Origin: an uncultured Deinococcales bacterium
Lineage (GTDB): Bacteria > Deinococcota > Deinococci > Deinococcales > JAAFIG01
Direction: 5' to 3'
DNA length: 13,511 nucleotides
Assembly: GCA_964247135.1 (NCBI GenBank)
Contig: CAXTTL010000022.1
Location: 1 to 13,511, forward strand
Part shown: piece by piece, positions 2 through 13,511 of the stretch
Position numbering within the stretch: position 1 is the first letter of the stretch
Layout: every line of letters starts with the position of its first letter
Translations under genes and position numbers: made by a program
Notes under the pieces: generated by a model
What the model was told of the DNA's origin: nothing
What the model saw: the letters and a program-made list of their open reading frames with translations, nothing else
The model's database searches: none

Positions 2-202
2 TTGACCGAACGTGACCTCGAGGTGTTGCGCTTGGTGGCGCAAGGGCTTGCCAACAAGGTCATTGCGGATCGGCTCGAGATCAGTGAACGCACGGCTCGG
101 ACGCATGTCAGCAACATCCTCGAGAAATTGCATTTGGCGAACCGCACGCAAGCCACGTTGTATGCGATCAAGATGGGCATTGTTCCAAATTCTTCGGGTT
201 AG
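2..202 (+). CDS. NarL/FixJ-family response regulator, C-terminal LuxR-type HTH (5' end outside the window)
   Basis: LTERDLEVLRLVAQGLANKVIADRLEISERTARTHVSNILEKL..NRTQA matches the LuxR HTH consensus (LTxRExEVLxLxAxGxxNxxIAxxLxISxxTVxxHxxxIxxKL). Stop TAG at 200-202. Confidence 0.93.
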   Translation: MTERDLEVLRLVAQGLANKVIADRLEISERTARTHVSNILEKLHLANRTQATLYAIKMGIVPNSSG

Positions 203-822
203 GGGCGAAACGTTTTTTCGCCCGCCCGAATCGGGACAGCCAATCGATTCTCGAGCGGTGAGAGTGGGCAAACCCAGCGCGGGTTGTAGGCGCACGATGG
301 GTTGTAGGCATAGTTGAAATCGATCACCACAGCATCTTGGTCGCGTCCAAGGTCGGCGTGTTTGATCGTGTCGAGCAGGTAGCGCCCGCCGCCGTAAGTG
401 CTTGTACCGTTGGTCGCGTCGCCAAATGGCAGGAACACGCCGCCGCCATAACCGAGCAACCAGTACAGGCTCAACCGACAATCTTGCCCTTCGAGTTTGA
501 ATTGCACTTGCGCAAAGCGCTCGGCGCGAACCAGACCGTCTTCTGGGAGTTCAAACTCGAGCAGGTTTGGCGCGGCGGTTTCAAGCGGCAATTTCAGACG
601 CAGGGCGGGGTCGTAATCAAAATACTCGAGCTTGCCAAAACTGGCTTTTTGCATCTCATCCAGCGCAGATTGCGGATGACTGAAAAACAATTGATCTCGA
701 GCCGTCCGAAATGCTTGCAATGTTTCTCGAGCCTCAAGCCCACGTTGCTGTGCTTCACGAACTTGACAATAAATTTCATTCACCCAAGCGCGGTAATCCC
801 AAAGGTCGGCAAAACGGTTCAT
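199..822 (-). CDS. DUF1684 domain-containing protein (207 aa)
   Basis: Family motifs RDQLF..HPQS, L.YF.YDP, FLPFGDATNGTSTYGGGRYL and DFNYAYNPSCAYNPRWVCPL.P.EN.L...I.AGEK. ATG at 822 is preceded by a GAGGGAGAG SD-like tract (831-840), so it is preferred over the track start at 888. Confidence 0.9.
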   Translation of the reverse strand: MNRFADLWDYRAWVNEIYCQVREAQQRGLEARETLQAFRTARDQLFFSHPQSALDEMQKASFGKLEYFDYDPALRLKLPLETAAPNLLEFELPEDGLVRAERFAQVQFKLEGQDCRLSLYWLLGYGGGVFLPFGDATNGTSTYGGGRYLLDTIKHADLGRDQDAVVIDFNYAYNPSCAYNPRWVCPLSPLENRLAVPIRAGEKTFRP

Positions 823-843
823 GGTTTTATTCTCTCCCTCGAA

Positions 844-861
844 CCTGAGTTTTGACTCAGG
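844..861. promoter_or_regulatory. Perfect 7-bp inverted repeat in the divergent promoter region (possible operator or 5' UTR hairpin)
   Basis: CCTGAGT-TTTG-ACTCAGG between the divergent starts at 822 (-) and 985 (+). Confidence 0.35.
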
Positions 862-984
862 ACAATTGACGTAGCCACCGCCCCGCAATCTGCCGTTGCA
901 GCCTGGCTTGTAAAGGTTCAGGATAAGCGAAGCACTCGGATTCTCTCATGGCTCGAGTCAAGACTTGATTGTTCGGAGGTCATT

Positions 985-1917
985 ATGAAGCGTTTGAATT
1001 TTGGTATGTTCGGGGCAGTTCTGGCAGTGTTGCTGGTCAGTTTGGCGGCGGCACAAAGCAAAGGTACGATCACGGTCGGTTCAAAACTCGATGCCGAAGG
1101 GCATTTGCTCGGCAGCCTGATCGGGTTGAGGCTCGAGCAGGCGGGTTATCAGGTGGTTGACAAAACTGGCACCGGCACGACCACCATCACGCGCAAGGCA
1201 TTGGTCGAGGGTCAGATTGACATTTACCCCGAGTACACCGGCACGGCGATCAATAATTTTTTCAAAGGGCAGAACATCCCAGCAGGCACTTCCAAAAACG
1301 CTGCCAAGTCCTTCAGGACGGTCAAAAGTCTGGACAAGAAATTGAACGACATCGCCTGGTTGGGTCGTGCGCCAGCCAACAACACCTGGGCGATTTGCAC
1401 GCCAAAAACCCTGGCGCAAAAAGAGGGCATCAAATCCCTTGCCGATTTTGCCAGCTATGTCAACAAGGGCGGCATGGTCAAATTGATTGGCTCACAAGAG
1501 TTTCTCGAGCGTGACGATGCGCTCAAATCCTTTCAAAAAGTCTACGGCTTTACCCTGAAGGCAGAGCAAACCCTGGTGCTGGCTGGGGCGACCACCGCCC
1601 AAACAGAATCTGCCGCCGCCAAAGGCACAGACGGCGTGAATTTTGCGATGGCTTACGGCACGGACGGTTCGCTCTCGGCGCTTGGGCTGGTCGTGCTCTC
1701 CGATCCCAAAGGCGCACAACCCATTTACCAACCCGCACCAACCGTGCGCGGCGAGGTCTTGCGCAAGAACCCAGAATTGCCAAGATTGCTCGACCCGATT
1801 TTTGCCACGCTCGACGAGGCAACCTTGCAAAGCTTGAACGTACAAATTGACCTCGAGGGCAAGAACCCAAAAGATGTGGCTCGAGCGTATCTGATGGCAA
1901 AAGGATTTCTGAAATAA
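985..1917 (+). CDS. osmF: Osmoprotectant (glycine betaine/choline-type) ABC transporter substrate-binding protein, OpuAC/OsmF-YehZ family
   Basis: Sec signal peptide (MKR...AAAQ). Motifs VGSK.DAEG.LLG, IDIYPEYTGT, ANNTWAI, EF.ER.D, AMAYGTDG and QPIYQPAP.VR. SD GGAGGT at 975-980. Confidence 0.88.
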   Translation: MKRLNFGMFGAVLAVLLVSLAAAQSKGTITVGSKLDAEGHLLGSLIGLRLEQAGYQVVDKTGTGTTTITRKALVEGQIDIYPEYTGTAINNFFKGQNIPAGTSKNAAKSFRTVKSLDKKLNDIAWLGRAPANNTWAICTPKTLAQKEGIKSLADFASYVNKGGMVKLIGSQEFLERDDALKSFQKVYGFTLKAEQTLVLAGATTAQTESAAAKGTDGVNFAMAYGTDGSLSALGLVVLSDPKGAQPIYQPAPTVRGEVLRKNPELPRLLDPIFATLDEATLQSLNVQIDLEGKNPKDVARAYLMAKGFLK

Positions 1918-1924
1918 GTGGCTT

Positions 1925-1954
1925 GTGGCTCGGGGGACTGATTCCTCGAGCCGC
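1925..1954 (+). terminator. GC-rich stem-loop just after the binding-protein stop codon (terminator-like or mRNA-stabilising)
   Basis: GTGGCTCGGGGGA-CTGA-TTCCTCGAGCCGC forms a 13-bp stem with three G.U pairs. There is no strong U tract, so intrinsic termination is uncertain. Confidence 0.5.
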
Positions 1955-2061
1955 CGTTGGCGTTTATGGGCAGTTTGAAAAAGCGAATCTCAGATGGTTA
2001 ATGGCAAATATACTTGCAGTCAAGCGCTCACTGCACCATCACACCCATGAGGAGAGGCACG

Positions 2062-3501
2062 ATGAATCAATTTGACATCTTGATTGTTGGCGGCGGACAG
2101 GCGGGCATTCCACTGGCGTTTGCGCTCGCCAAGGCAGGCAAGAAAGTGGCTCTCGCCGAACGCAAACTGCTGGGTGGAAGCTGCGTCAACTTTGGTTGCA
2201 CGCCCACCAAAGCCGCCATCGCCAGTGCCAAACTCGCGCATCAAGCCAGACGAGCCAGCGAGTACGGCATTCAAATCTCAAGTGTCGTTGTGGATTTTGC
2301 GGCGGTGATCGAACGCGCCCGCAAGGTTGCTGCCCACTCGAGACAAGGGCATGATGCACGGCTCGAGCCTTCAGAAAACCCAAAATTGCTGCGCGGTCAT
2401 GCGCGATTTGAAAAACGCGAGGACGTAGGCGGTCAAGGCTTTGTGGTACATGTGGGTGATACCACGGTTCTTGCCAAACAGGTCATTATCAACACGGGCA
2501 CGCGCAGTTTGATTCCGCCGATTCCTGGCTTGATGGATGTCGATGTGGTTCATGCGGGCAACTGGCTCGAGTTGACCCAACTGCCCACGCACTTGGCGGT
2601 GATTGGTGGCGGTTACATCGGTCTGGAGATGGCACAATTTTATGCCCGCATGGGTTCAAAAGTCACCGTGCTTCATGCGGGGCAACGCATCGCAGACCGC
2701 GAAGACGAAGATGTCAGCCGCGAACTGGCAAACTTGCTCGAGCGTGAAGGGCTTGAGATTCTGACCAATGTTCACATCAGCCATGTCAGCAACGACGCTG
2801 GAACAATCAGCATTGCTTTTGAACAGGCTGGAAGTGCTCAAACCCTGAATTGCAGCCATGTCTTTGTCGCCACCGGACGCGTCATGAACAGCGATGACCT
2901 GGGTCTGGAAACCGTCGGCGTCAAAGTCTCCAACCGAGGCGCGGTCGAGGTCAATGAACGCCTCGAGACCAACGTGCCTGGAATTTACGCGGCGGGTGAC
3001 ATCACGGGCGGACCACAATTCACGCACGTCGCTTGGGACGATTACCGCGTGCTCGAGTCGCAATTGGTCGGAGATCGATCCTGGACGACCAAGCGCGTTG
3101 TGCCTTATGGCTTGTTCACCGATCCCGAATTGGGACGCGTCGGCATCACCGAACGCGAGGCGAGTGAACGCAACCTCGAGGTTAAAGTCGTGAAATTTGA
3201 GATGATCAAAAACGGCAAAGCCCGAGAGGTGGGCGAAGAGGACGGCTTTATCAAACTGGTGGTGGACGCCAAAACGGATCGTCTGCTGGGGGCGGCGGTG
3301 CTCTCGAGCGAAGGCGCGGAACTGGTTCACACTTACGTCACCCTGATGAATGCCGACGCGCCGTACACCGTGATTCGTGATGCCGTATTCGCCCACCCGA
3401 CCTTGCAGGAAGCCATTCAGAGCGCAACGGCACTCGTGCCAAAAGCCAATCCATTGCCCACGCTCGAAGTTCCCGCTCGAGCATCGCTTGTGGTTCGGTA
3501 A
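2062..3501 (+). CDS. Class I pyridine nucleotide-disulfide oxidoreductase (RclA/MerA/Lpd-like flavoprotein, 479 aa)
   Basis: FAD motif GGGQAG, redox dithiol GGSCVNFGCTPTK, NAD(P) motif GGGYIG, TNVPGIYAAGD, FTDPELGRVG and C-terminal HPTLQE. ATG at 2062 follows GAGGAGAGG. Confidence 0.9.
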   Translation: MNQFDILIVGGGQAGIPLAFALAKAGKKVALAERKLLGGSCVNFGCTPTKAAIASAKLAHQARRASEYGIQISSVVVDFAAVIERARKVAAHSRQGHDARLEPSENPKLLRGHARFEKREDVGGQGFVVHVGDTTVLAKQVIINTGTRSLIPPIPGLMDVDVVHAGNWLELTQLPTHLAVIGGGYIGLEMAQFYARMGSKVTVLHAGQRIADREDEDVSRELANLLEREGLEILTNVHISHVSNDAGTISIAFEQAGSAQTLNCSHVFVATGRVMNSDDLGLETVGVKVSNRGAVEVNERLETNVPGIYAAGDITGGPQFTHVAWDDYRVLESQLVGDRSWTTKRVVPYGLFTDPELGRVGITEREASERNLEVKVVKFEMIKNGKAREVGEEDGFIKLVVDAKTDRLLGAAVLSSEGAELVHTYVTLMNADAPYTVIRDAVFAHPTLQEAIQSATALVPKANPLPTLEVPARASLVVR

Positions 3502-3594
3502 GGTTATGCGTTTTGAAATTCGTAGGGTGAACTTCATAGCTCAACCCAAAAACTCGAGCCTCAGACCAGAAAATGTACTTGACCTCGCCTGAAG

Positions 3595-3755
3595 CCCTCA
3601 CCCGGCTCGTTCCTCGCCACCCTCTCCCGCTTGCGGGAGAAGGAAAAGACTTCGAGCCACGTGTGTAAAAACCTAAACTCCCTTCTCCCGATGTTGGGAG
3701 AAGCGGTTTCGCCCGTCAGGTGCGTCTTGAAACCAAGAAGGGTTGGGGATGAGGG
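3595..3755. repeat. Inverted pair of CCCTCACCC..CCCTCTCCC..GGGAGA-type REP-like palindromic units (BIME/REPIN-like)
   Basis: Unit A 3595-3643 has hairpin TCTCCCGC-TT-GCGGGAGA. Unit B 3680-3755 is oppositely oriented with hairpin CTTCTCCC-GATGTT-GGGAGAAG and tail GGGTTGGGGATGAGGG. The outer ends CCCTCA and TGAGGG are complementary. Confidence 0.8.
3704..3739. mobile_element. 36-38 bp hairpin mini-insertion, copy 1, inside REP-like unit B
   Basis: C-GGTTTC-GCCCGTCAGGTGCGTCTT-GAAACC-AAGAA. Removing it restores a continuous GGGAGAAGGGGTTGGGGATGAGGG arm. It is related to 9213-9250. Confidence 0.65.
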
Positions 3756-3907
3756 AAGACAGCGCAATCGCTGATCTTCATGTCCGACAAAGTCAATTAA
3801 AACTTGAAGCTCGAGCGATCAAATCAAATTGAGCTTTCTCCGTTCGGGACTGGATTTTGGAAGTGATCTGAGCCACAACTTGGGTCTGCCAAAGAGGTGA
3901 ACACTGT

Positions 3908-5974
3908 ATGAACAACAAGTTACAGAAAACCGAAACTCAAACCACTTCATCGGCGCTTCATCCTGCACGCCCAAAATCCAGCCAGATGCCTCAAGTGAAG
4001 CAAGCCGAACCTCAAGCCCTGACGCTCGAGCGCGAGCAAATCAAGCTCGAGGCTGGGTTGAATCAAGAATGGTTGGTGACCAACGGCATTGGTGGTTACG
4101 GCATGGGTTCGCTGGTTGGTGGCAGAACGCGGCATTATCACGGCTTGCTGGTGGCGGCGCTCGAGCCTCCAACGGGGCGTTTTGTGCTGGTGGCGCAGAT
4201 GATCGAACGGGTGACGCTGGCAGATGGACGCTCTGAAAGTTTGCATGTTCAAGAGTGGGGCGGCGGCAGCACCGACCCGCGCGGCGATGTCTGGCTCGAG
4301 TCGTTTAGCCTCGAGGGTACGATTCCAACCTGGCGTTATGTTTTTGGCGAGACGATCCTCGAGAAGCGCCTTTGGATGGTGCATGGCAAGAACACCAGTT
4401 TCGTGACCTACAGTGTGCTGGCGGGTGATGCCATCACGCTCGAGGTGCAACCGCTTTGCACCTACCGCGACCATCATTCGGGGACAAAGGCGGGTGAAAC
4501 CCCGCAGGTCGAGAGGCTCGAGGACGGTCTGGCAATCGAGTTTCCAAATGCCAAACCATACTTTATTCACACCAACTTGGGCGAGCCTGTTGCGGGCGGT
4601 GAGTGGTGGTTCAACGAATTCTTGCGGGTCGAAGCCGAACGCGGTTTTGATGCGCTTGAAGACCTGTATCGTGCTGGCAGTTTTAACGCCACACTCGAGT
4701 CTGGACAAACCCTGGCGCTCGCGCTCTCGAGCGAAACCGATGCCAGTGCCAGCGACTGGCAGGCGCAACTCGAGGCGGAACAAGCCAGGGCAAAAACCTT
4801 GCTCGAGTTGGCAAAAATCAAAACCGAACCCGTTTGGGTGCAACAACTGGTGCTGGCAGCCGACCAGTTTGTGGTGGCTCGAGGCGCGGGTGACACGGTA
4901 ATCGCAGGTTATCCGTGGTTTGGAGACTGGGGGCGCGACACCATGATTGCACTGCCTGGGCTGGCGCTGTCCACCGGACGCCCCGAACTCGCCTCGAGTT
5001 TGCTGCGCACCTTTGGGCATTTTGTGGATCGCGGCATGATCCCCAACCGTTTTCCTGATGTCGGTGAAACACCCGAGTACAACACGGTGGACGCAACCCT
5101 CTGGTATGTTCACGCCCTGCGTGAGCACGTGAAAACAACGGGAGACGAAGGCTTGGTGGACGAACTTTGGGTGACGCTCGAGGCAATTGTGCGCTGGCAT
5201 TTGAACGGCACACGTTACGGCATTGGGGTCGATCCAAGCGACGGTCTGTTGCGGGCGGGCGAGCCTGGGGTGCAACTGACCTGGATGGATGCCAAGATTG
5301 GTGATTGGGTGGTCACGCCGCGCACCGGCAAACCCGTCGAGATCAATGCGCTCTGGTTCAGCGCCCTGCGCACCCTCGAGGCATGGGCGGCATCGCGCAA
5401 GGCGAACCATGATTACGGTGCGTTGGCGGATCGGGTGGGTGATTCGTTTGCGCGGTATTGGAATAAAAACACGAATTACCTCTACGACGTGATCGATGGT
5501 CCTGACGGTGATGATCCGACCATACGCCCCAACGCCGTGATCGCCGCCAGCTTGCAGCATTCGCCGCTCGAGAACCGTTGGCGCAGGGCGGTGGTGGATG
5601 TCGCCACCGCGCAACTCCTCACGCCTTACGGTTTGCGTTCACTCTCGCCAGAAGATTCGCGCTACGCGCCGCAGTACCGTGGTTCGCCCCTCGAGCGCGA
5701 TGCGGTTTACCATCAGGGAACGGTCTGGGCTTGGTTGCTTGGACCTTTTGCCGAAGCCCATTTGCGCACCTACGCCCATCCACTGTCCGCCAGGGCGTTT
5801 CTCGAGCCGATGGCGCAACATCTCTTGCAGGGCGGTCTGGGTTCGATCTCCGAGATTCTTGACGGTGACGCGCCACATACACCTCGAGGTTGTCCGTGGC
5901 AAGCCTGGAGTGTCGCCGAAATACTGCGAGCTTGGAAACTGACCGCACCACGCTCGAGAAGCCGTCAAAGCTGA
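3908..5974 (+). CDS. Glycogen debranching enzyme, archaeal type (GDE_N plus amylo-alpha-1,6-glucosidase domain)
   Basis: EWLVTNGIGGY, TRHYHGLLVAA, IAGYPWFGDWGRDTMI, GMIPNRF, YNTVDATLW, QLTWMDAK, GKPVEINALW, YHQGTVWAWL, SEI.DGD.P, QAWSVAE. SD GAGGTG at 3894-3899. Confidence 0.93.
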   Translation: MNNKLQKTETQTTSSALHPARPKSSQMPQVKQAEPQALTLEREQIKLEAGLNQEWLVTNGIGGYGMGSLVGGRTRHYHGLLVAALEPPTGRFVLVAQMIERVTLADGRSESLHVQEWGGGSTDPRGDVWLESFSLEGTIPTWRYVFGETILEKRLWMVHGKNTSFVTYSVLAGDAITLEVQPLCTYRDHHSGTKAGETPQVERLEDGLAIEFPNAKPYFIHTNLGEPVAGGEWWFNEFLRVEAERGFDALEDLYRAGSFNATLESGQTLALALSSETDASASDWQAQLEAEQARAKTLLELAKIKTEPVWVQQLVLAADQFVVARGAGDTVIAGYPWFGDWGRDTMIALPGLALSTGRPELASSLLRTFGHFVDRGMIPNRFPDVGETPEYNTVDATLWYVHALREHVKTTGDEGLVDELWVTLEAIVRWHLNGTRYGIGVDPSDGLLRAGEPGVQLTWMDAKIGDWVVTPRTGKPVEINALWFSALRTLEAWAASRKANHDYGALADRVGDSFARYWNKNTNYLYDVIDGPDGDDPTIRPNAVIAASLQHSPLENRWRRAVVDVATAQLLTPYGLRSLSPEDSRYAPQYRGSPLERDAVYHQGTVWAWLLGPFAEAHLRTYAHPLSARAFLEPMAQHLLQGGLGSISEILDGDAPHTPRGCPWQAWSVAEILRAWKLTAPRSRSRQS

Positions 5975-6044
5975 GAGCTGAGAACTTACGCGAACAAGAA
6001 AGCGAATCAAAAACTTGAGTCCGATTCTCAAAAATCCTTGTCCT

Positions 6045-6072
6045 GTAGCGGCGCATGGCTATGCGCCGCTAC
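6045..6072. repeat. GTAG-class REP palindrome
   Basis: Perfect 12-bp inverted repeat GTAGCGGCGCAT-GGCT-ATGCGCCGCTAC, starting with the GTAG tetranucleotide, in the spacer between the two glycosidase genes. Confidence 0.75.
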
Positions 6073-6105
6073 GTTGAAACTCACCGCACACCCAGGAGGT
6101 CAATC

Positions 6106-8760
6106 ATGACAAACACCAACACGCCCGAACACGAACGCCTCGAGCAATACCGGCAGCATATTGGTCACTGGAAACGCTGGGGACCGTATTTGTCTGACCG
6201 CGCCTGGGGTACGGTGCGCGAGGATTACAGCGCCAACGGCACGGCTTGGGAGCACTTCCCGCACGATCAGGCTCGCTCGAGGGCGTACCGTTGGAACGAG
6301 GATGGACTCATGGGCATCAGCGACCACAATGGGCGTTTGTGCTTGGCGTTGGCGCTTTGGAATGGGGTTGACCCGATTTTAAAAGAACGGCTTTTTGGTT
6401 TGACGGGCAACGAGGGCAACCACGGCGAGGATGTCAAGGAGCATTATTTCTACCTCGAGAGTACCCCAACCCATTCGTACATGAAGGGTTTGTACAAGTA
6501 CCCGCAAGCCGAATTTCCGTACTCGAGGTTGGTCGAGGAAAACCGCAGGCGCGGTAAATCTGAACCGGAATTTGAATTGTTTGATACTGGAATATTTAAT
6601 GAGCAAAAATATTGGGATGTCGAAATAGAGTACGCCAAAGCCGATTCTGATGACATCCTGATGCGCGTCACGGTGCACAATCGAGGACCCCAAACCGCAC
6701 GGTTGCATGTCCTGCCAACGCTGTGGTTTCGCAACACCTGGTCTTGGGGTTATGAGGGCACAAAGCATCACACCATTCAACATGAAAGTGCTTTTGCGCT
6801 GTCTGCCGATCATCCCGAACTTGGGAAGCGCCATTTGTACTTTGAAGCCGACGCCGACGCCCTGTTCTGCGAGAACGAAACCAACCTGACCAAACTCTAC
6901 AACGTTCCCAACCACTCGAGCACCGCCAAGGACGGCATCAACGACTTGGTGGTTCACGGACGTCTGGACGCCGCCAACCGCATCGACGGCTCGAAAGCCG
7001 CGATCTGGCATCAACTCGAGGTTGCACCAGGCGCGTCCAAAACCGTGCGGGTGCGTTTTTCGGCGGCGGTGCTCGAGCAAGCTTTTCACGATTTCGACAT
7101 GATCTTCGAGCGCCGCAAACTCGAGAGCGACGAATTTTTTGACACCCTCGAACCCGCAGGACTGAACGACGATCAACGCTTGGTACAACGTCAAGCCTTT
7201 GCGGGGATGCTCTGGAGCAAACAATTTTACCATTACAACATCGAACATTGGCTCGAGGGCGATCCAGCCGGACCACCGCCGCCGGAATCACGCAAAAACG
7301 GGCGCAACCGCGACTGGCGGACGCTCAACACCGCCGAGATCATCTCGATGCCGGACTGTTGGGAATACCCCTGGTTTGCCGCCTGGGATTTGGCGTTTCA
7401 CACCATTCCGCTGGCGCTGCTCGACCCAGAATTTGCCAAGAATCAATTGTTGTTATTAACCAAAGAATGGTATCAACACCCCAACGGTCAACTGCCCGCC
7501 TACGAATGGCAGTTTAGCGATGTCAACCCACCCGTTCACGCCTGGGCGGTCTGGCGGGTTTACCAGACCGAACAAGAACACTGGGGTCGCTCCGACCGAG
7601 CCTTCCTCGAGCGTGCTTTTCACAAGCTGCTCTTGAATTTCACATGGTGGGTCAACCGCAAGGACGCGGAAGGTCGCAACGTCTTTCAGGGCGGGTTTCT
7701 CGGGCTGGACAACATCTCGGTCTTTGACCGCTCACAACCCCTGCCCGGAGGCGGACACCTCGAGCAAGCCGATGGCACCGCCTGGATGGGGATGTTCTGT
7801 CTGAACATGCTCAAAATCGCGCTCGAGCTTTCCCGCGATAACCCCGTGTACGAGGACATTGCCACCAAATTCTTCGAGCATTTCTTGTACATTGCCAACA
7901 GTCTCAACCGCCTGGAACTCTGGGACGAAATGGACGAGTTTTACTACGATGTGCTGCGAATGCCCAACGGCAACGCCGAGAAATTACGCGTGCGCAGCAT
8001 GGTCGGACTGATCCCACTGCTCGCCGTCGAAATCCTCGAGCCAGAAGATCTCAAATCTTTTCCGCAATTTACCGCCCGTTTAAACTGGTTTCTCGAGCAT
8101 CGCCCCGACCTCGCCAGCCTGGTCTCCAGATGGATGGAATCTGGCAAAGACGACCGCCACCTGCTCGCCCTGGCACGTGGACACCGAATGAAACGCGTCC
8201 TCGCCCGAATGCTCGACCAGACCGAATTCCTTTCCGATTACGGCATCCGCGCCCTCTCCAGACACCACCTCGAGCATCCTTACGAGGTCAACGCCGAGGG
8301 TCAAAGTTACCGCATCGCCTACGAACCCGCCGAGAGCAGCAGCGGTTTGTTTGGCGGCAATTCCAACTGGCGCGGACCGATCTGGTTTCCGATCAATTAC
8401 CTCTTGATCGAAAGCCTGCAAAAGTTTCACTTGTATTACACCGAGGATTTCAAAATCGAATGCCCAACCGGTTCTGGCGCGTACCTGAGCCTGCTCGAGG
8501 TTGCGGGTGAACTTTCAAAACGTTTGATCGGCATTTTCACCAAAGACCAGCTCGAGCGCCGCGCCGTGTTTGGCGAGAACCAAACCTTTCAAAACGACCC
8601 GCACTGGCAAGACCTGGTGCCGTTTCACGAGTATTTCAATGGGGATAGCGGCAAAGGCGTGGGCGCGTCACACCAGACGGGCTGGACTGGACTGGTGGCA
8701 ACGTTGTTGCACCAGCAAGGGCAGGTTGAAGTGAAAGAGACGCTCGAGAGCATGATTTGA
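6106..8760 (+). CDS. Large GH63-related (MGH1-like, yeast YMR196W-like) glucosidase, 884 aa
   Basis: WKRWGPYLS.R.WGTVREDYS, EGNHGEDVKE, SMPD.WEYPWFAAWDLAFH, GGFLGLDNI, QADGT.WM, GGNSNWRGPIW and F.EYF.GD.G.G.GASHQTGWT. ATG at 6106 follows SD AGGAGGT, so it is preferred over 6055. Confidence 0.9.
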   Translation: MTNTNTPEHERLEQYRQHIGHWKRWGPYLSDRAWGTVREDYSANGTAWEHFPHDQARSRAYRWNEDGLMGISDHNGRLCLALALWNGVDPILKERLFGLTGNEGNHGEDVKEHYFYLESTPTHSYMKGLYKYPQAEFPYSRLVEENRRRGKSEPEFELFDTGIFNEQKYWDVEIEYAKADSDDILMRVTVHNRGPQTARLHVLPTLWFRNTWSWGYEGTKHHTIQHESAFALSADHPELGKRHLYFEADADALFCENETNLTKLYNVPNHSSTAKDGINDLVVHGRLDAANRIDGSKAAIWHQLEVAPGASKTVRVRFSAAVLEQAFHDFDMIFERRKLESDEFFDTLEPAGLNDDQRLVQRQAFAGMLWSKQFYHYNIEHWLEGDPAGPPPPESRKNGRNRDWRTLNTAEIISMPDCWEYPWFAAWDLAFHTIPLALLDPEFAKNQLLLLTKEWYQHPNGQLPAYEWQFSDVNPPVHAWAVWRVYQTEQEHWGRSDRAFLERAFHKLLLNFTWWVNRKDAEGRNVFQGGFLGLDNISVFDRSQPLPGGGHLEQADGTAWMGMFCLNMLKIALELSRDNPVYEDIATKFFEHFLYIANSLNRLELWDEMDEFYYDVLRMPNGNAEKLRVRSMVGLIPLLAVEILEPEDLKSFPQFTARLNWFLEHRPDLASLVSRWMESGKDDRHLLALARGHRMKRVLARMLDQTEFLSDYGIRALSRHHLEHPYEVNAEGQSYRIAYEPAESSSGLFGGNSNWRGPIWFPINYLLIESLQKFHLYYTEDFKIECPTGSGAYLSLLEVAGELSKRLIGIFTKDQLERRAVFGENQTFQNDPHWQDLVPFHEYFNGDSGKGVGASHQTGWTGLVATLLHQQGQVEVKETLESMI

Positions 8761-8870
8761 GACTGAAGTACCGTCAGGGTTTTTTAACCTGCGGTGATGA
8801 ACTCAAAATCTCTACTTCCGCGTTACATCCACAGGGCAAAAAGGCGAAATCTACAGTAATTTTGGTATTG

Positions 8871-9493
8871 GTTGAGAATGTGCTGGCTCGAGCGTTCAAA
8901 GTGGAGAAACCGAATCAAAAATGGGTGACTGACATCACGTACATTCCAACAACGCAAGGTTGTTTGTATTTGGCTGTGGTGCTGGACTTGTTCTCGAGTA
9001 TGATCGTGGGTTGGGCTTTTTCTTCGAGCCTCGAGACGAAATTGGTGTTGAACGCATTAGAGAGTGCAAGACGAAAGCGTAAACCGAGTGCTGAAGGGGG
9101 TTTGTTGCATCACAGTGATCGTGGGGTGCAATACGCGAGTCTCGAGTACCGATAGGCATTAAATGCGTTGAAAGCGACGTGTAGCGTGAGTCGGAAAGGA
9201 AATTGTTGGGATGGTGACCATGCCCACTAGCTGCGTTTTATGGTCAAGAAAATGCGGTAGCTGAAAGCTTCTTTTCAACGTTGAAACTCGAGTTAGACCT
9301 GAACAAATCGATTGGAACAAAGGATTTCACGAGTGGGAGCGCGTTTTCTTGGATGGAGGGTTGGTATAACCGTGAACGTCGGCACTCGAGCCTGGGGTAT
9401 GTGTCCCCAGTGAAGTTTGAGGAGGAGTTTCTTTCTCAACCTCGAACTAACAAAACCCTTGCAATTCCAGAGTTCAGAGGTTGCTCGGTATGA
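8871..9493 (+). pseudogene. IS3-family transposase OrfB (rve integrase) remnant: 5'-truncated, with an in-frame stop and a 38-bp insertion
   Basis: PNQKWVTDITY, YLAVVLDLFS..IVGW, HHSDRGVQY, then TAG at 9153-9155, SRKGNCWD, insertion, NAVAESFFSTLKLE and WYNRERRHSSLGYVSP. All three DDE positions are recognisable. No OrfA is seen. Confidence 0.93.
9213..9250. mobile_element. 38-bp hairpin mini-insertion, copy 2, inside the IS3 integrase
   Basis: GG-TGACCAT-GCCCACTAGCTGCGTTTT-ATGGTCA-AGAA lies exactly between codons TGG GAT (WD) and AAT GCG (NA). Removing it restores both the frame and the GNCWDNAVAESFF motif. No target duplication. Confidence 0.8.
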
Positions 9494-9736
9494 TCCGTAC
9501 CATCAACATCACAGTATGAAACGATTATTTTCATGAACACTCCGTAAAACCAACACCTCACGGAAAGTCTCTTTTGCTTCAACTCGTGTTGTCAATGGTC
9601 GCAAACCCATGCGGCGGTGGCAAAAGGTAGAGTGATTCACCATGACATCGGTCTTAAATCATTATAATATACACATGATTACGCTCAAGTGTGTCGATTT
9701 TCTATACCTGCACTCGAGAAAGCAATCAAAACCGAC

Positions 9737-9742
9737 TACACT
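9737..9742 (+). promoter_or_regulatory. Probable -10 box (TACACT) for a leaderless or very short-leader mqnA transcript
   Basis: TACACT lies 9 nt upstream of GTG at 9752, and there is no SD sequence. This arrangement is common in Deinococcota. Confidence 0.5.
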
Positions 9743-9751
9743 GTTTTCACC

Positions 9752-10609
9752 GTGACCCGTCTTGGCATCATCAAGTACACCAACGTCGCTCCTTTGCTTC
9801 ATCATCTCGAGCCAGCCTTGACGGATTTTCCAGTCGAGTTTGTACGCGGCGTACCAACCGAAATCAATGCCGCGTTGCTCGAGGGACGCGTGGATTTAGC
9901 CAACATTTCGGTGTTTGAATTCCTTGAACATGCCGATTCTTTACGGGCGTTGCCCGATTTTTCGGTATCGGTGCTGGGTCCGGTTTACAGCGTAAATTTA
10001 TTTCATACCGTGCCGTGGCAAGAATTAAATGGGCGCACGATTGCGGTGACCACCCACAGCGCCACCAGCGTCAAGTTGCTCGAGACGCTTTTAAAACTTG
10101 ATGGGATTAATGCCAAGCTCGAACGCGCGACCCAAAATCTGGAAACTTTGCTCGAGACCTATCCTGCGGTCTTGCTGATCGGTGATGATGCGCTGGTAGA
10201 GTGGTACCGCTTCTGCGGTCCAATCTCTGAAACCACGCAAATGTTTGGGTTGCCCAACACTGGACAATCCTCGAGCGGCAAAACGGTGCAAGTCACAGAC
10301 TTGGCGGAAAGTTGGTACGCGCACACCGGAATGCCGTTTGTCTTCGCGGTTTGGGCTTCCAGGGCGGACAATCCGCCGCCCAAAGAGTTGGTTTTGGCAA
10401 TGCGCAACTCGAGGCGCTGGGGTGTCGGGCATCTGGCAGAGATTGCCGAACTCGAGGCGGCGCGTTTGAAGTTGCCCGTGCGAATTGTGCAACATTACCT
10501 TTGGAATTTCAGGTATCACCTCGAGGCGCCTGATCGGGCTGGTTTGGCAAGGTTTGCGCAGTTGGTGAAGCCTGAAATGGTTGGGAAATTCAGTTTTTGG
10601 AATCTTTAA
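9752..10609 (+). CDS. mqnA: Chorismate dehydratase MqnA (futalosine menaquinone pathway), 285 aa
   Basis: RLG.I.YTNVAP, GVPTEINAALLEG.VD, GPVYSV.LF, SATSV.LL, LLIGDDAL, DL...W...TGMPFVFAVW. The GTG start at 9752 matches the family N-terminus better than the track start at 9689. Confidence 0.92.
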   Translation: MTRLGIIKYTNVAPLLHHLEPALTDFPVEFVRGVPTEINAALLEGRVDLANISVFEFLEHADSLRALPDFSVSVLGPVYSVNLFHTVPWQELNGRTIAVTTHSATSVKLLETLLKLDGINAKLERATQNLETLLETYPAVLLIGDDALVEWYRFCGPISETTQMFGLPNTGQSSSGKTVQVTDLAESWYAHTGMPFVFAVWASRADNPPPKELVLAMRNSRRWGVGHLAEIAELEAARLKLPVRIVQHYLWNFRYHLEAPDRAGLARFAQLVKPEMVGKFSFWNL

Positions 10610-10630
10610 AAGATTGTTTTGAGCATATTT

Positions 10631-10695
10631 CTCGGGTTTTGATCTCGGGTTTTTCTGTTTGAGGCACTGATTATTTGCTTGTCTACTCGGGTTTT
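10631..10695 (+). repeat. Three direct copies of CTCGGGTTTT in the intergenic region
   Basis: Exact copies at 10631-10640, 10644-10653 and 10686-10695. Confidence 0.6.
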
Positions 10696-10716
10696 GTCTG
10701 GATTGCCAGCCTGGAA

Positions 10717-10778
10717 CTTGACATTGTTTAGATAACCATGTATCTTATCAATGTTCAGATATTAAGCAATGTTCAGAT
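10717..10778 (+). promoter_or_regulatory. Sigma70-type promoter overlapped by three operator-like boxes
   Basis: TTGACA (10718-10723), 17 nt, TATCTT (10741-10746). CAATGTTCAGAT occurs exactly twice (10749-10760, 10767-10778), with a variant CATTGTTTAGAT at 10722-10733. Confidence 0.75.
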
Positions 10779-10798
10779 GAAAACTCAAGGAGTAAGCC

Positions 10799-11782
10799 AT
10801 GAACGAGTCAACCCAAGAACTGCACGTGATTTTCGGCACAGGACCCCTCGGTAAATCAACCGCTCGAGAACTGCACACGCTCGGACACCGCGTGCGAATG
10901 GTCAACCGCAGCGGTCAAAGCAGCGACCTGCCCAAAACCATCGAAATTCTTAAAGGCGACGCTTATGACCTCGAGTTCACGCGCCGTGTCAGCCAAGGCG
11001 CGACCAGCGTTTACCAGTGTGCCCAACCCGCTTACCATCAATGGGCTGGGAACTTCCCAAAACTGCAAGCCAGCATTCTCGAGGCTGCCGCCAGCCACAA
11101 CGCCAAATTGATTGTTGCCGACAATTTATACATGTACGGCGCTTCAAACGGGGAAGACTTGCGAGAAACCAATGCGTACAACGCCCACACCAAAAAGGGT
11201 TTGATCCGCGCCGAAATGGCACGCAGCGCACTCGAGGCACATCAAAACGGACGGGTTCGGGTGGCGCTGGTACGTGGCTCGAATTTCTTTGGTCCAGAAG
11301 ATGAAGTCATGTCCGACCTGTTGTTCAAACCTGCACTGCAAGGCAAGCCCATGAACCTGCTCGGACGGCTCGATCAACCACATACCTTCACGTATGCCCC
11401 AGATTTTGGACGCGCCCTAACAACCATTGGCACGGTCAACGCCAAGCTCGAGCCTAGCGTTTTTGGTCGAGCCTGGCACGTTCCCAGCCCAGAATCGGTG
11501 ACGCAAAATCAATTGGTGAAATTGATTGAAGCCCAACTGGGTCACAAGGTTAAAACCCAAGTTGCGGGAGCTTTGATCTTAAACCTGCTGGGTTTGTTCA
11601 ACCCGATCATGCGAGAAGCCATCGAAATGCTTTACGAATGGAATCAGCCGTTTATCATGGACTCGAGCGATTTCCAAAAAACCTTTGGCATTAAACCCAC
11701 CCCGCTCGAGGTTGCCATCAAAGCAACGCTTGCCTGGAATCGTGGGCAAATGGCTTCGGTGGCGCGATTGTCACCTGCCTGA
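10799..11782 (+). CDS. NAD(P)-dependent epimerase/dehydratase family protein (atypical SDR)
   Basis: HVIFGTGPLG Rossmann motif, VNRSG, DNLYMYG, KKGLIRAEM, R.SNFFGP, HTFTY.PD, AWHVPS, EMLYEW..PF..DS. SD AAGGAG upstream. Confidence 0.9.
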   Translation: MNESTQELHVIFGTGPLGKSTARELHTLGHRVRMVNRSGQSSDLPKTIEILKGDAYDLEFTRRVSQGATSVYQCAQPAYHQWAGNFPKLQASILEAAASHNAKLIVADNLYMYGASNGEDLRETNAYNAHTKKGLIRAEMARSALEAHQNGRVRVALVRGSNFFGPEDEVMSDLLFKPALQGKPMNLLGRLDQPHTFTYAPDFGRALTTIGTVNAKLEPSVFGRAWHVPSPESVTQNQLVKLIEAQLGHKVKTQVAGALILNLLGLFNPIMREAIEMLYEWNQPFIMDSSDFQKTFGIKPTPLEVAIKATLAWNRGQMASVARLSPA

Positions 11783-11908
11783 AAAGCGCTAATTCCCCTC
11801 GAGCCACGCCGGCGCAGGATGTGCCACATCCGTTGAATTCTCGAGATTCGTTTTCCAGAACAGGTTATTGTTCACGCCCTTGGTGGGTGATTTTGAATCT
11901 GTCGTACC

Positions 11909-13511
11909 ATGATTGTCATTATGACCACGGCAGTCAAGCCACTCGAGAACCTGTTCAAACCGATTCAGTTGCGGCGTGCTGGTCTGGCGTTGTGCTTGTG
12001 GGGCGAGGCTGGAATTGGTAAAACGCACCTGGCAGGCGTGCTGGCTCGAGATTCTGGGTTGAAAAGCGTTAAGGTTCAGGCAAATGCCAGCCTGCTCGAG
12101 ATGACGCAAGCCTTGCCCATGCCAAAGAAGTTGCCCTTGTGGGCGCAACGTTTACCAGATCAATTGACCAATCTTGGGCATCTCGAGGCGCTTCAGGCGG
12201 CAGAATTGGTTGGGGTGCTGCTGGTGCAAGCTACCCCGATCATTCTTTGGGTTGAAGATGTCCATGAATCCAAACCAGAACGCCTGGAATTCTGGCAGAA
12301 GTTGGCGGGCATTGTCGCGCACAGCAAAGGCGTAGCGCTCCTGACAACCAGCCGTGCGGCGCTGTTAACGCCGTTTGTCTTGCATCGGGTTTTGCCAATG
12401 TCCATCGAAGAAAGCCGTTCGGCACTCGAGACAGAACTTGGTGCAGCAATTCCAGCCGAGGCACTCGAGTGGATTCAAGCTCGAGCAGCAGGCAATCCGT
12501 TGTTTGCCCTGGAATATTTTCGGACTTTGGCACGGGCTGGGTTTTTGTGGAACGATTCAAAACGTTGGCGTTGGCGACCTCCCGAAAACAATTTGATGCC
12601 GACCACCGTCGAAGCCTTGATTTTCCGCAGCTTGCTCGAGGCGTTGGATTCGCCCGCACTGGAAAAAGCGCTCAAAGCAAAAGCCTTGCTGTTTGCGGGG
12701 GCAAACGATCTGTTGTGGGCAAACGTTGCCGAACTCGAGCCGCCAGAGTTGGGGTATCTAAAACTTGAACTCGAGCGGCGCGGAATTTTGGTGGACGGGC
12801 AGTTTGTTCACCCGCTTTTTCGAGAAGTGACCTTGGAAAGTTTGACGCCGCTCGAGCGAAAAACTTTTGCCAGACGAGCCATTCAAGCTTTAGAGATGGA
12901 TGCTGCAGAATTGGCGGCAGAATTGATTCAAGCTGCGGCACTGTTACCCAGCGAAGCTTTTGCCTTGCTGGAACGGGCGGCAACACGAACTGAGAATTCT
13001 TTACAGGCTGCTCGGTTGAAAGCTCGAGCCGTTGAATTTGCTGAACTTGAACGGCGCGGGGCTTTGGCGTTTGAAGCCGCAAATTTGCTCGAGCCTTTTG
13101 ATTTACAGCAAGCAGAACAACTGATGGCACAGGCTGTGCAATTGCAACACGACCTTGAAGCCCATTATGGCTGGATCGTGTTGCTGGTCAGGCTCGGAAA
13201 AATTGAACAGGCAAGTCAAGTATTTTCGCAACTTTCTATAGCAGAACGCGAATCTAGACGTGGTTTAGAGACCCGCTTGTTCTTGCAATACCGCCAAGCC
13301 GACGACGCTGGTGCGGTGAGCATCTGGCGCAACGAACTTCAAGCAGATACCGACATTGACCCGTCAGCCCTCTCGTATCTGACCCATGCGCTGGCAAACA
13401 CGGGTCAGACCGAACTGGCATTTGAGATAGCCCTGAACGCTCTCGAGCGTCCCAACCTGAGTGCTCGGCAACGTGGGCAGTTGCTTGAAGTGTGTGGTAT
13501 TTTCGAGTTCA
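11909..13511 (+). CDS. STAND-class (AAA_16/MalT-like) ATPase with helical TPR-like region; 3' end outside the window; absent from the ORF track
   Basis: Manual translation is open from ATG 11909 (or 11921) to the window end. Walker A GEAGIGKT, Walker B ILWVEDVH, sensor TTSR, GNPLF (GxP) and FVHPLFRE winged-helix motif, then Ala/Leu/Glu-rich helices. In-frame upstream TGA at 11894-11896. Confidence 0.88.
   Translation, partial: MIVIMTTAVKPLENLFKPIQLRRAGLALCLWGEAGIGKTHLAGVLARDSGLKSVKVQANASLLEMTQALPMPKKLPLWAQRLPDQLTNLGHLEALQAAELVGVLLVQATPIILWVEDVHESKPERLEFWQKLAGIVAHSKGVALLTTSRAALLTPFVLHRVLPMSIEESRSALETELGAAIPAEALEWIQARAAGNPLFALEYFRTLARAGFLWNDSKRWRWRPPENNLMPTTVEALIFRSLLEALDSPALEKALKAKALLFAGANDLLWANVAELEPPELGYLKLELERRGILVDGQFVHPLFREVTLESLTPLERKTFARRAIQALEMDAAELAAELIQAAALLPSEAFALLERAATRTENSLQAARLKARAVEFAELERRGALAFEAANLLEPFDLQQAEQLMAQAVQLQHDLEAHYGWIVLLVRLGKIEQASQVFSQLSIAERESRRGLETRLFLQYRQADDAGAVSIWRNELQADTDIDPSALSYLTHALANTGQTELAFEIALNALERPNLSARQRGQLLEVCGIFEF

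Follow-up and report, generated by a model that had tools for sequence, protein, structure and literature searches.

CTCGAG, a HIP-like highly iterated palindrome in a lineage of Deinococcota

Why should a single six-base word recur every 150 bases or so in a bacterial genome, between genes as well as within them? The question is raised by a stretch of 13,511 nucleotides from an uncultured Deinococcales bacterium (contig CAXTTL010000022.1 of assembly GCA_964247135.1), hereafter the window, which is the entire contig C22 of the genome under study, G000 (5,091,702 bases in 386 contigs, 52.65% guanine plus cytosine (GC), 84% complete). It contains the palindrome CTCGAG exactly 102 times, or 7.55 times per kb, with the first copy at position 17 and the last at 13442, the very number that a first-pass annotation had reached by hand. 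In our analysis CTCGAG behaves as a highly iterated palindrome of the type known as HIP, apparently a signal at the level of DNA rather than of peptide, codon or RNA. It displays three defining features of this class, namely strong over-representation, independence of the reading frame and conservation of position between species, and so upholds the HIP-like character proposed in the first-pass annotation.

Abundance and frame independence

Dinucleotide-preserving shuffles of the window yield 2.98 copies on average (standard deviation 1.78, maximum 10), compared with the four or so expected at first pass, and none of 200 shuffles reaches 102. The enrichment is not confined to the window either. 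G000 as a whole holds 33,925 copies, one per 150 bases (about 6.66 per kb), and the zero-order ratio of observed to expected copies (O/E) is 24.75, in agreement with the initial estimate of about 25-fold. Every contig shares in it, with a density of 6.74 ± 1.34 per kb and a minimum of 2.56, and by abundance CTCGAG is the top hexamer among all 4,096, the runners-up being its own overlaps.

Could such abundance simply follow from a preference for certain codons, dipeptides or base compositions, or have been introduced by the library or the assembly? Two observations point that way. In the Pfam-supported open reading frames (ORFs) of the window, 68 of the 102 sites read CTC-GAG (Leu-Glu), next to 11 reading xCT-CGA-Gxx (Arg), 12 reading xxC-TCG-AGx (Ser) and 11 outside ORFs; and a maximal-order Markov model of G000 gives an O/E of only 1.24. 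The latter value is circular and uninformative, however, since CTCGAG itself accounts for nearly all occurrences of the 5-mers CTCGA and TCGAG; 62% of all TCGA in the genome falls within the word. A more telling null is a synonymous shuffle within each gene, which keeps the protein and the already inflated codon usage. For the nine window genes it yields 14.7 ± 3.6 copies (maximum 26, n=200) against 91 observed. For the genome we called genes by a crude method based on ORFs and codon usage, which returned 4,312 genes covering 83% of the genome and recovered eight of the nine analysed window ORFs (seven with a Pfam domain), missing the open-ended AAA_16 ORF. Within these genes the word occurs 17,387 times as CTC-GAG, 4,172 times as xCT-CGA-Gxx and 6,321 times as xxC-TCG-AGx, where the shuffle predicts 3,064, 289 and 551, respectively, so that a 5.7-, 14.4- and 11.5-fold excess remains in the three frames and a 7.1-fold excess overall. 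Density is even slightly higher outside genes (7.00 per kb) than within them (6.59 per kb), and peaks at 9.33 per kb in 1,931 short intergenic gaps (46% GC), with 2,138 copies observed versus 47 expected. As all 19 independently assembled genomes of the family carry the enrichment and share the positions of their sites (see below), an origin in preference or artefact has virtually no chance of being correct, and we rejected it on the strength of the shuffle, the intergenic density and the shared positions. The initial judgments that codon and dipeptide preference fall short of an explanation, and that the word ignores the reading frame as HIP1 does, are thus borne out.

The hold of the word on codon choice is strictly contextual. 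Leu-Glu pairs are encoded as CTC-GAG in 77.5% of cases, where 5.0% would be expected. CGA provides 83% of Arg codons in a CT_G context versus 11-13% without a preceding CT, and 30% if the preceding codon ends in CT but the next starts with a base other than G; likewise, TCG provides 88% of Ser codons in a C_AG context versus 15-24% elsewhere. Beyond codons, the word shapes protein sequence, as had been suspected. Genome-wide, Leu-Glu exceeds expectation 2.37-fold, with Glu-Leu at 1.01. The GH63-like glycoside hydrolase gene of the window illustrates this on a single protein, with 17 Leu-Glu pairs in G000 versus 5-8 across all five trait-negative orthologs (5-6 in the three from Deinococcus). 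These orthologs contain no CTCGAG in the three Deinococcus cases and three copies each in the other two, and of the 15 sites in the Leu-Glu frame, about ten (from 8 to 11 in individual orthologs) correspond to a different dipeptide in them. In the trait-positive relative L001, 17 of the 18 G000 sites of this gene are found at the same position.

Conservation, spacing and anatomy of the sites

To what extent are the sites held in place? Five genomes of the same genus (G001-G005) were projected onto four blocks of G000 totalling 76,243 bases, with a coverage of 42.7-60.7 kb per genome, an identity of 85.4-86.6% and a nearly star-shaped tree; rpoB and rpoC were not located by motif in G000, and other conserved blocks were taken. 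Of 9,617 site comparisons, 7,850 are conserved (0.816, versus 0.463 for other hexamers), which ranks CTCGAG first among the 1,910 hexamers with enough data. Conservation amounts to 0.82, 0.754 and 0.70 in the three frames, with controls at 0.42-0.46, and to 0.793 versus 0.42 in non-coding DNA. Even the silent third bases within sites are frozen, at 0.93 (CTC) and 0.925 (GAG) versus 0.633 and 0.604 for the same codons elsewhere. Existing sites are thus strongly maintained, and the sharing of 81.6% of sites between species, together with the enrichment of 18 other family genomes, is at odds with any library or assembly artefact.

Maintenance could nevertheless be a thing of the past, the word having been mass-produced in an ancestor by a system since lost and now slowly decaying. 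Such a relic would agree with the apparent lack of a trait-tracking enzyme in the family (discussed below), with a density of GCTCGAGC that varies about 2.7-fold among family genera, and with a surplus of lineage-specific losses over gains: in six-genome windows the site is present in five of six genomes at 62 positions and in one of six at 26, and stricter criteria give 91 losses versus 17 gains. However, an excess of the five-of-six class is also expected at equilibrium if a site enjoys a strong advantage at every position able to accept one, and we consider the surplus ambiguous rather than a sign of erosion. Where the other genomes are unanimous, the site is lost in the focal genome in 91 of 1,085 cases (8.4%), and control hexamers are changed in 15.5%. 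A neutral relic should diverge like its surroundings, which sits ill with the contrast at silent positions (93% versus 60-63%) and non-coding sites (79% versus 42%), and we regard this scenario as improbable.

A more serious contender is a neutral molecular drive, in which a site-specific biased repair of mismatches or heteroduplexes, of the Vsr type or methyl-directed, resolves near-cognate sequences toward CTCGAG and the word has no function. It would account for a motif that overrides codon choice and amino acids in all frames and is densest where constraint is weakest, and a restoring bias would likewise freeze silent and non-coding positions within sites; positional conservation alone cannot tell selection from such a bias. 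A methyl-directed repair model has indeed been proposed for HIP1 (Elhai, 2015; PMC4390886). The mutational record of the sites is less accommodating. Conserved one-off precursors were converted to the site in 4 of 148 cases versus 1.54 expected (P 0.07), an elevation of at most about 6-fold. Losses by a single step are in the main transitions that affect all three half-site positions and point to no one hypermutable cytosine. One-off variants lie near expectation, transitions being the highest, and show no sharp depletion (O/E of 1.17 for CTTGAG/CTCAAG and 1.74 for TTCGAG/CTCGAA), so that the signature of very-short-patch repair is missing. What the comparison shows is strong maintenance of existing sites; their active creation, as proposed at first pass, would be at most modest.

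The unit under maintenance is exactly six bases long. No flanking position exceeds 42% for any base, but a weak symmetric preference exists for A at -3 and T at +3 (42% each) and for G at -1 and C at +1 (36% each), also in purely non-coding DNA. Given these weak flanks, the minority share of GCTCGAGC (4,225 of the 33,925 sites in G000) and an extension of the palindromic arms by at least three pairs that occurs at 0.68 of a shuffled null in coding and 0.90 in non-coding DNA, a longer true motif was rejected. The lack of arm extension also speaks against CTCGAG as the centre of hairpins or of larger palindromes. A dispersed repeat of the REP (repetitive extragenic palindromic) or MITE (miniature inverted-repeat transposable element) type was rejected as well, as no flanking base exceeds 42% and sites lie in frame within conserved genes.

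The spacing of sites is nearly geometric, with a mean of 148 and a coefficient of variation of 0.96. At short range, though, sites exclude each other. Their pair correlation drops to 0.30 at 7-11 bp, is still 0.56 at 12-20 bp and recovers to 1 by around 60 bp; for non-coding DNA taken separately, the values are 0.41 at 7-8 bp and 0.59 at 9-13 bp. Independent bias at each site would not predict exclusion in non-coding DNA, a further point against the repair drive, which we judge doubtful on the whole. Together with the weak symmetric flanks, the exclusion below about 20 bp has the marks of a protein footprint. Along genes, density stays level at 6-7 per kb, apart from a peak right after stop codons, made up of sites starting at offset +2 (193 versus about 45 per position). 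The preferred A at -3 accounts for this peak, as in a site at offset +2 that position is taken by the final base of the stop codon. A role as hairpin or terminator stem was not supported, since pairs 7-20 bp apart are depleted and the peak after stop codons is otherwise explained. The only periodicity detected is the 3-nt coding period, over distances of up to 1.2 kb on contigs of which the longest measures 115 kb and the median far less.

At the other end of the scale, 16 site-free gaps exceed 1.5 kb where 1.4 are expected, and 11 of the 20 longest (8 of the longest ten) are AT-rich islands with 27-40% GC, most of which are probably imported DNA. The longest CTCGAG-free stretches, of 1.7-2.6 kb with 27-33% GC, lie at C13:11893-14536, C70:14168-16418, C13:4758-6745, C1:102561-104482 and C20:7986-9673; several are without a called gene. 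The absence of the word from foreign islands brings to mind a signal for uptake or recombination, favoured by a transformation machinery and accruing through biased uptake and replacement, like the uptake signal sequences (USS) and DNA uptake sequences (DUS) of other bacteria. The frame independence, altered peptide composition, even spread and conserved positions of CTCGAG would all agree with this, and members of the Deinococcota are naturally transformable. For HIP1 itself, the summary of a preprint (10.1101/2024.09.10.611283) describes an improvement of transformation that depends on homology and methylation. We still consider an uptake signal improbable here, given a word of 6 nt that is palindromic and present at about 6.7 per kb. 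Known uptake sequences are 9-12 nt long, non-palindromic and present at about 1 per kb, and we know of no uptake specificity in Deinococcota.

Within the window, the sites are distributed over genes and spacers as follows.

17..13447, no strand: array of 102 CTCGAG sites, 91 in nine ORFs and 11 outside
199..888, minus strand: DUF1684 gene (Pfam-supported ORF), 5 sites
985..1917, plus strand: OpuAC-type substrate-binding protein gene, 4 sites
2014..3501, plus strand: pyridine nucleotide-disulphide oxidoreductase gene, 9 sites
3908..5974, plus strand: glycogen debranching enzyme (GDE_N/GDE_C) gene, 21 sites
6055..8760, plus strand: GH63/MGH1-like glycoside hydrolase gene, 18 sites
8757..9155, plus strand: integrase-core (rve) fragment, 4 sites
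9689..10609, plus strand: menaquinone biosynthesis (VitK2_biosynth) gene, 9 sites
10799..11782, plus strand: NAD-dependent epimerase-family gene, 7 sites
11909..13510, plus strand: AAA_16 ATPase-domain gene, open at the contig end, 14 sites
952..957, no strand: non-coding site between the DUF1684 and OpuAC genes
1945..1950, no strand: non-coding site
3553..3558, no strand: non-coding site within a dispersed repeat at about 3540-3800
3810..3815, no strand: non-coding site
9287..9292, no strand: non-coding site 3' of the rve fragment
9385..9390, no strand: non-coding site
11798..11803, no strand: non-coding site
11840..11845, no strand: non-coding site

The 11 sites outside called ORFs comprise these eight, among them all six positions named as non-coding at first pass (952, 1945, 3553, 3810, 11798 and 11840), and three at 17, 74 and 119 that may lie in an open-ended ORF at the contig start. 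The intergenic repeat at 3540-3800 has dozens of matches at 70-100% per genome in all five same-genus genomes, with matches at 98-100% to its core at 3700-3741, and is probably an element of the MITE type or of the REP/REPIN type (REPIN, a REP doublet forming a hairpin). For 8757-9470, where the rve fragment and the end of the GH63-like gene overlap, relatives show scattered matches; the fragment looks like the remnant of an insertion sequence, and probably an old one, as it carries CTCGAG at normal density. A search of the window against Rfam returned no match.

Distribution of the trait and candidate enzymes

How widespread is the trait? We scored it genome-wide by counts of GCTCGAGC, with the reversed string as control. 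The 18 other genomes of the family, from five genera, without exception hold 838-4,448 copies versus 0-165 for the control. The closest named relative, L001, is a metagenome-assembled genome from the Deinococcales with 83% protein identity, in which 76 sites were counted over 12,992 bases. Over all 80 fetched loci, mostly from other lineages, the median O/E of CTCGAG is 1.1, and the loci from named Deinococcus lack the word. A survey of 326 genomes of the phylum, each at least 80% complete, found all 16 family genomes enriched. Outside the family, the near-complete genomes of genera g13 and g26 are enriched 3- to 28-fold, and in family f2 at least 13 genera are enriched 7- to 200-fold and others are not. 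None of the 104 genomes of genus g7 is comparably enriched (4-199 copies, ratios of about 1), the one outlier being G133 with 121 versus 1. The 31 genomes of genus g9 are depleted, with 2-56 copies versus 14-210 for the control, the opposite outcome for the same word within one phylum. None of our conclusions depends on G295, a genome marked as unpublished. The sharpest case comes from genus g23, where G149 (loci L220 and L239-L241; a sample of only 10 kb) reaches 6.35 sites per kb with a Leu-Glu ratio of 2.45, and its congener G150 (loci L242-L244) has 0.25 per kb and 1.32. Such an on/off switch between close relatives fits a discrete genetic determinant, and would also be expected under the repair drive from the gain or loss of one enzyme. 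All 19 family genomes thus have the trait, whose occurrence in the rest of the phylum is patchy, and the initial suggestion of similar enrichment in some other Deinococcota is supported.

What might the determinant be? The first-pass annotation had suggested a DNA methyltransferase, and for the phylum this is plausible. For three of the four Deinococcota studied, the enzyme tables of Blow et al. (2016; PMC4752239) list active type II enzymes for cTcgAg that form N6-methyladenine (m6A), and name no cognate restriction enzyme; the three are Meiothermus ruber DSM 1279, with 99.5% of CTCGAG sites methylated, Meiothermus chliarophilus DSM 9957, with 94.1%, and Marinithermus hydrothermalis DSM 14884, with 94.6%. 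The enzymes are named M.Mru1279II, M.Mch9957IV and M.Mhy14884I (PMC4752239); no CTCGAG methylase is listed for Meiothermus silvanus DSM 9946 (Blow et al., 2016; PMC4752239). The main-text passages of that paper considered here take up CTCGAG only for Nocardia and do not mention its hyper-abundance. The three enzymes were not matched to sequences analysed here.

Our favoured reading, held tentatively and at somewhat less than an even chance, is that CTCGAG is a maintained DNA mark, read as a 6-bp palindrome and probably linked to the methylation of adenine. Purifying pressure on precisely these six bases would hold the word in place throughout resident DNA, and a symmetric, probably dimeric, CTCGAG-specific protein would read it. 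The most likely reader or writer would be an N6-adenine methyltransferase producing CTCGm6AG, of the kind active in cultured relatives without a listed nuclease. The sites would then constitute a dense genome-wide mark, whose existing copies selection would preserve while slowly adding new ones where protein or spacer tolerates them. Three steps of this reading are inferred: the existence of a site-specific protein that reads the word, a part for methylation in this lineage, and selection, not biased repair, as the force behind maintenance. Five points lead us to prefer a maintained mark over a neutral repair drive, though none is decisive: sites are conserved in position, they exclude each other at short range in non-coding DNA, their flanks show a weak symmetric preference, one-off precursors are seldom converted, and Vsr is lacking.

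The last of these reasons rests on profile searches. The Vsr family (PF03852) is found in none of the 16 family genomes and not in G000, by a search that detected it in the control genomes of E. coli, B. subtilis and C. vibrioides; across the 326 phylum genomes it has 27 hits, mostly in genera without the trait. The idea that a Vsr-like nuclease tracks the enrichment thus finds no support, and no cognate C5 methylase tracks it either, both of which further weaken the case for a repair drive. For the XhoI-family nuclease (PF04555) there was no hit in G000, in a search whose control detected it in no genome at all.

Several observations weigh against the maintained mark in turn. Family scans of G000, at 84% completeness, yielded no candidate CTCGAG methylase, and the methylases that were found have other likely allegiances. 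Two C5 enzymes adjoin nucleases of the NgoPII and Eco29kI families; one beta-class enzyme resembles M.PvuII (PDB 1boo, E 1.5e-149) and others adjoin MvaI/BcnI-like and NotI-like nucleases; the D12 enzyme adjoins a SacI-like nuclease; and the remainder comprise a type I HsdM, a pair of proteins of the MmeI family and, on a contig poor in the motif, a protein of 1,499 aa. Profiles of six G000 methylases across 41 relatives show a patchy occurrence that in no case follows the trait. The same holds for cluster C, the methylase of a PstI/BsuBI-type pair, which occurs in 3 of the 41 genomes and was rejected for its lack of tracking. A further candidate, cluster A, emerged from clustering after an Eco57I-model scan of 36 genomes. 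It is orphan-like, combines Eco57I and TaqI_C domains, has an amidase neighbour, and is closest among solved structures to M.BseCI (ATCGAT) and M.TaqI (TCGA); its orthologs occur in 16 of the 326 phylum genomes, all in genera with some enrichment. Yet it is found in none of the 16 family genomes and has no homolog in G000, it is present in only a minority of the enriched genomes and missing from many of the most enriched ones (G019, G027, G149 and genera g39, g49 and g54), the genomes of genus g13 are equally enriched with and without it, and G031 has an ortholog at a motif-to-control ratio of only 1.4. The proposed link to a methyltransferase is therefore plausible for the phylum, by virtue of the three cultured members, but none has been found that tracks the trait in G000 or its family.

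The candidates set aside individually lie on contigs C14, C178, C189, C36, C207, C320, C169, C21, C192 and C112; a beta-class fragment at a contig edge (C4:5-253) is not among the placed enzymes. A catalytic-motif search for extra methylases returned 39 ORFs (32 of them new), which, three aside, were of rRNA- and protein-methyltransferase types or unrelated proteins. The three exceptions, of 404-667 aa (C32:3062-5065, C48:22564-23778 and C51:9055-10599), carry a [DNS]PP[YFWH] motif and match no Pfam family at E 1e-5.

A TaqI_C domain occurs in all 31 genomes of the depleted genus g9 and in 6 of 15 family genomes. Every genome of genus g9 (e.g. loci L251, L253 and L254), in which GCTCGAGC is depleted, carries an ORF, some 400-430 aa in length, that includes a TaqI-like specificity domain. 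G000 for its part strongly avoids many other palindromes, with an O/E of 0.02 for GGCC and 0.07 for CTAG and copy numbers of 1 for GGGCCC, 3 for CGGCCG, 4 for AGGCCT, 5 for CGTACG, 7 for GGATCC, 11 for CCGCGG, 15 for CAGCTG and 17 for GCATGC. The near-absence of GGCC, CCGCGG, CAGCTG and GAGCTC fits the resident NgoPII-, Eco29kI- and SacI-like nuclease genes and the M.PvuII-like methylase.

The maintained mark can be taken one step further. In this bolder form, which we consider unlikely, the density of the word would itself be its function, with CTCGAG, probably as CTCGm6AG, serving as a genome-wide self-mark or architectural code for a dimeric reader whose footprint would span about 20 bp. 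A mark every 150 bp or so would identify resident DNA, and the lack of marks new DNA. If true, the HIP principle would have been invented a second time, independently and in a denser form, outside the cyanobacteria, and culturable relatives of the Meiothermus type, with a milder form and a known methylase, would make the HIP question directly testable.

Comparison with known systems

For about 25 years the highly iterated palindromes of cyanobacteria have defied explanation, and our literature searches found no publication that reports a hyper-abundance of CTCGAG. How does the word compare with systems already described? A close parallel is HIP1 (GCGATCGC) with the alternate cyanobacterial HIPs. 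Like these, CTCGAG is a short GC-rich palindrome, enriched tens of fold in all frames and between genes; its positions are conserved between species beyond background, the criterion applied in the HIP1 comparisons of Xu et al. (2018; PMC5861425); it is spread across a lineage with exceptional genomes that lack the word; and relatives possess methylases for the same word with no partner nuclease listed. The differences are equally clear. HIP1 is cyanobacterial and 8 nt long, whereas CTCGAG belongs to another phylum, is a different word and has 6 nt. At about 6,660 copies per Mb, it exceeds the range of 300-2,700 per Mb given for HIP1 in Table 2 of Elhai (2015; PMC4390886). The HIP1 core CGATCG is avoided in G000 (47 copies, O/E 0.03), so that CTCGAG is not HIP1 proper. 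The published methylation of CTCGAG is m6A and that of HIP1 is 5-methylcytosine or N4-methylcytosine. A cognate methyltransferase in the genome, put forward as a feature of the class in the HIP discussion of Elhai (2015; PMC4390886), was not found in the 84%-complete G000. For HIP1, the distribution analysis of Xu, Lawrence and Durand (2018; PMC5861425) further describes a long-range periodicity of 10-90 kb.

The very-short-patch repair of Dcm and Vsr, acting on CCWGG in E. coli, is alike in that repair bias could make a methylase target more common, and the enrichment it brings about is modest. Here the enrichment is 25-fold, Vsr is lacking in the family, no C5 methylase tracks the trait and one-off variants are not depleted. 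The USS of Pasteurellaceae and the DUS of Neisseriaceae resemble CTCGAG in being genome-wide, independent of frame, of effect on the proteome and scarce in foreign DNA, but are longer, non-palindromic and roughly ten-fold sparser. Nearest in kind to the methylase we envisage are M.Mru1279II, M.Mch9957IV and M.Mhy14884I, which share word and phylum, have no listed nuclease and methylate 94-99.5% of sites (tabulated in PMC4752239).

What can be gained from a second case? A HIP in an unrelated phylum makes the phenomenon a general one, and the phylum offers natural experiments in the on/off congeners G149 and G150, the gradation among genera and the reversal to depletion in genus g9. The culturable relatives with active m6A methylases for CTCGAG provide a biochemical handle, with which knock-outs, methylome mapping and pull-downs of readers are feasible. 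On the practical side, CTCGAG flags foreign DNA in these genomes and biases their codon, dipeptide and restriction-site statistics, for which annotation and binning methods should allow. Set beside HIP1, it is a different word, several times denser, and one that more than doubles the frequency of a dipeptide in the proteome.

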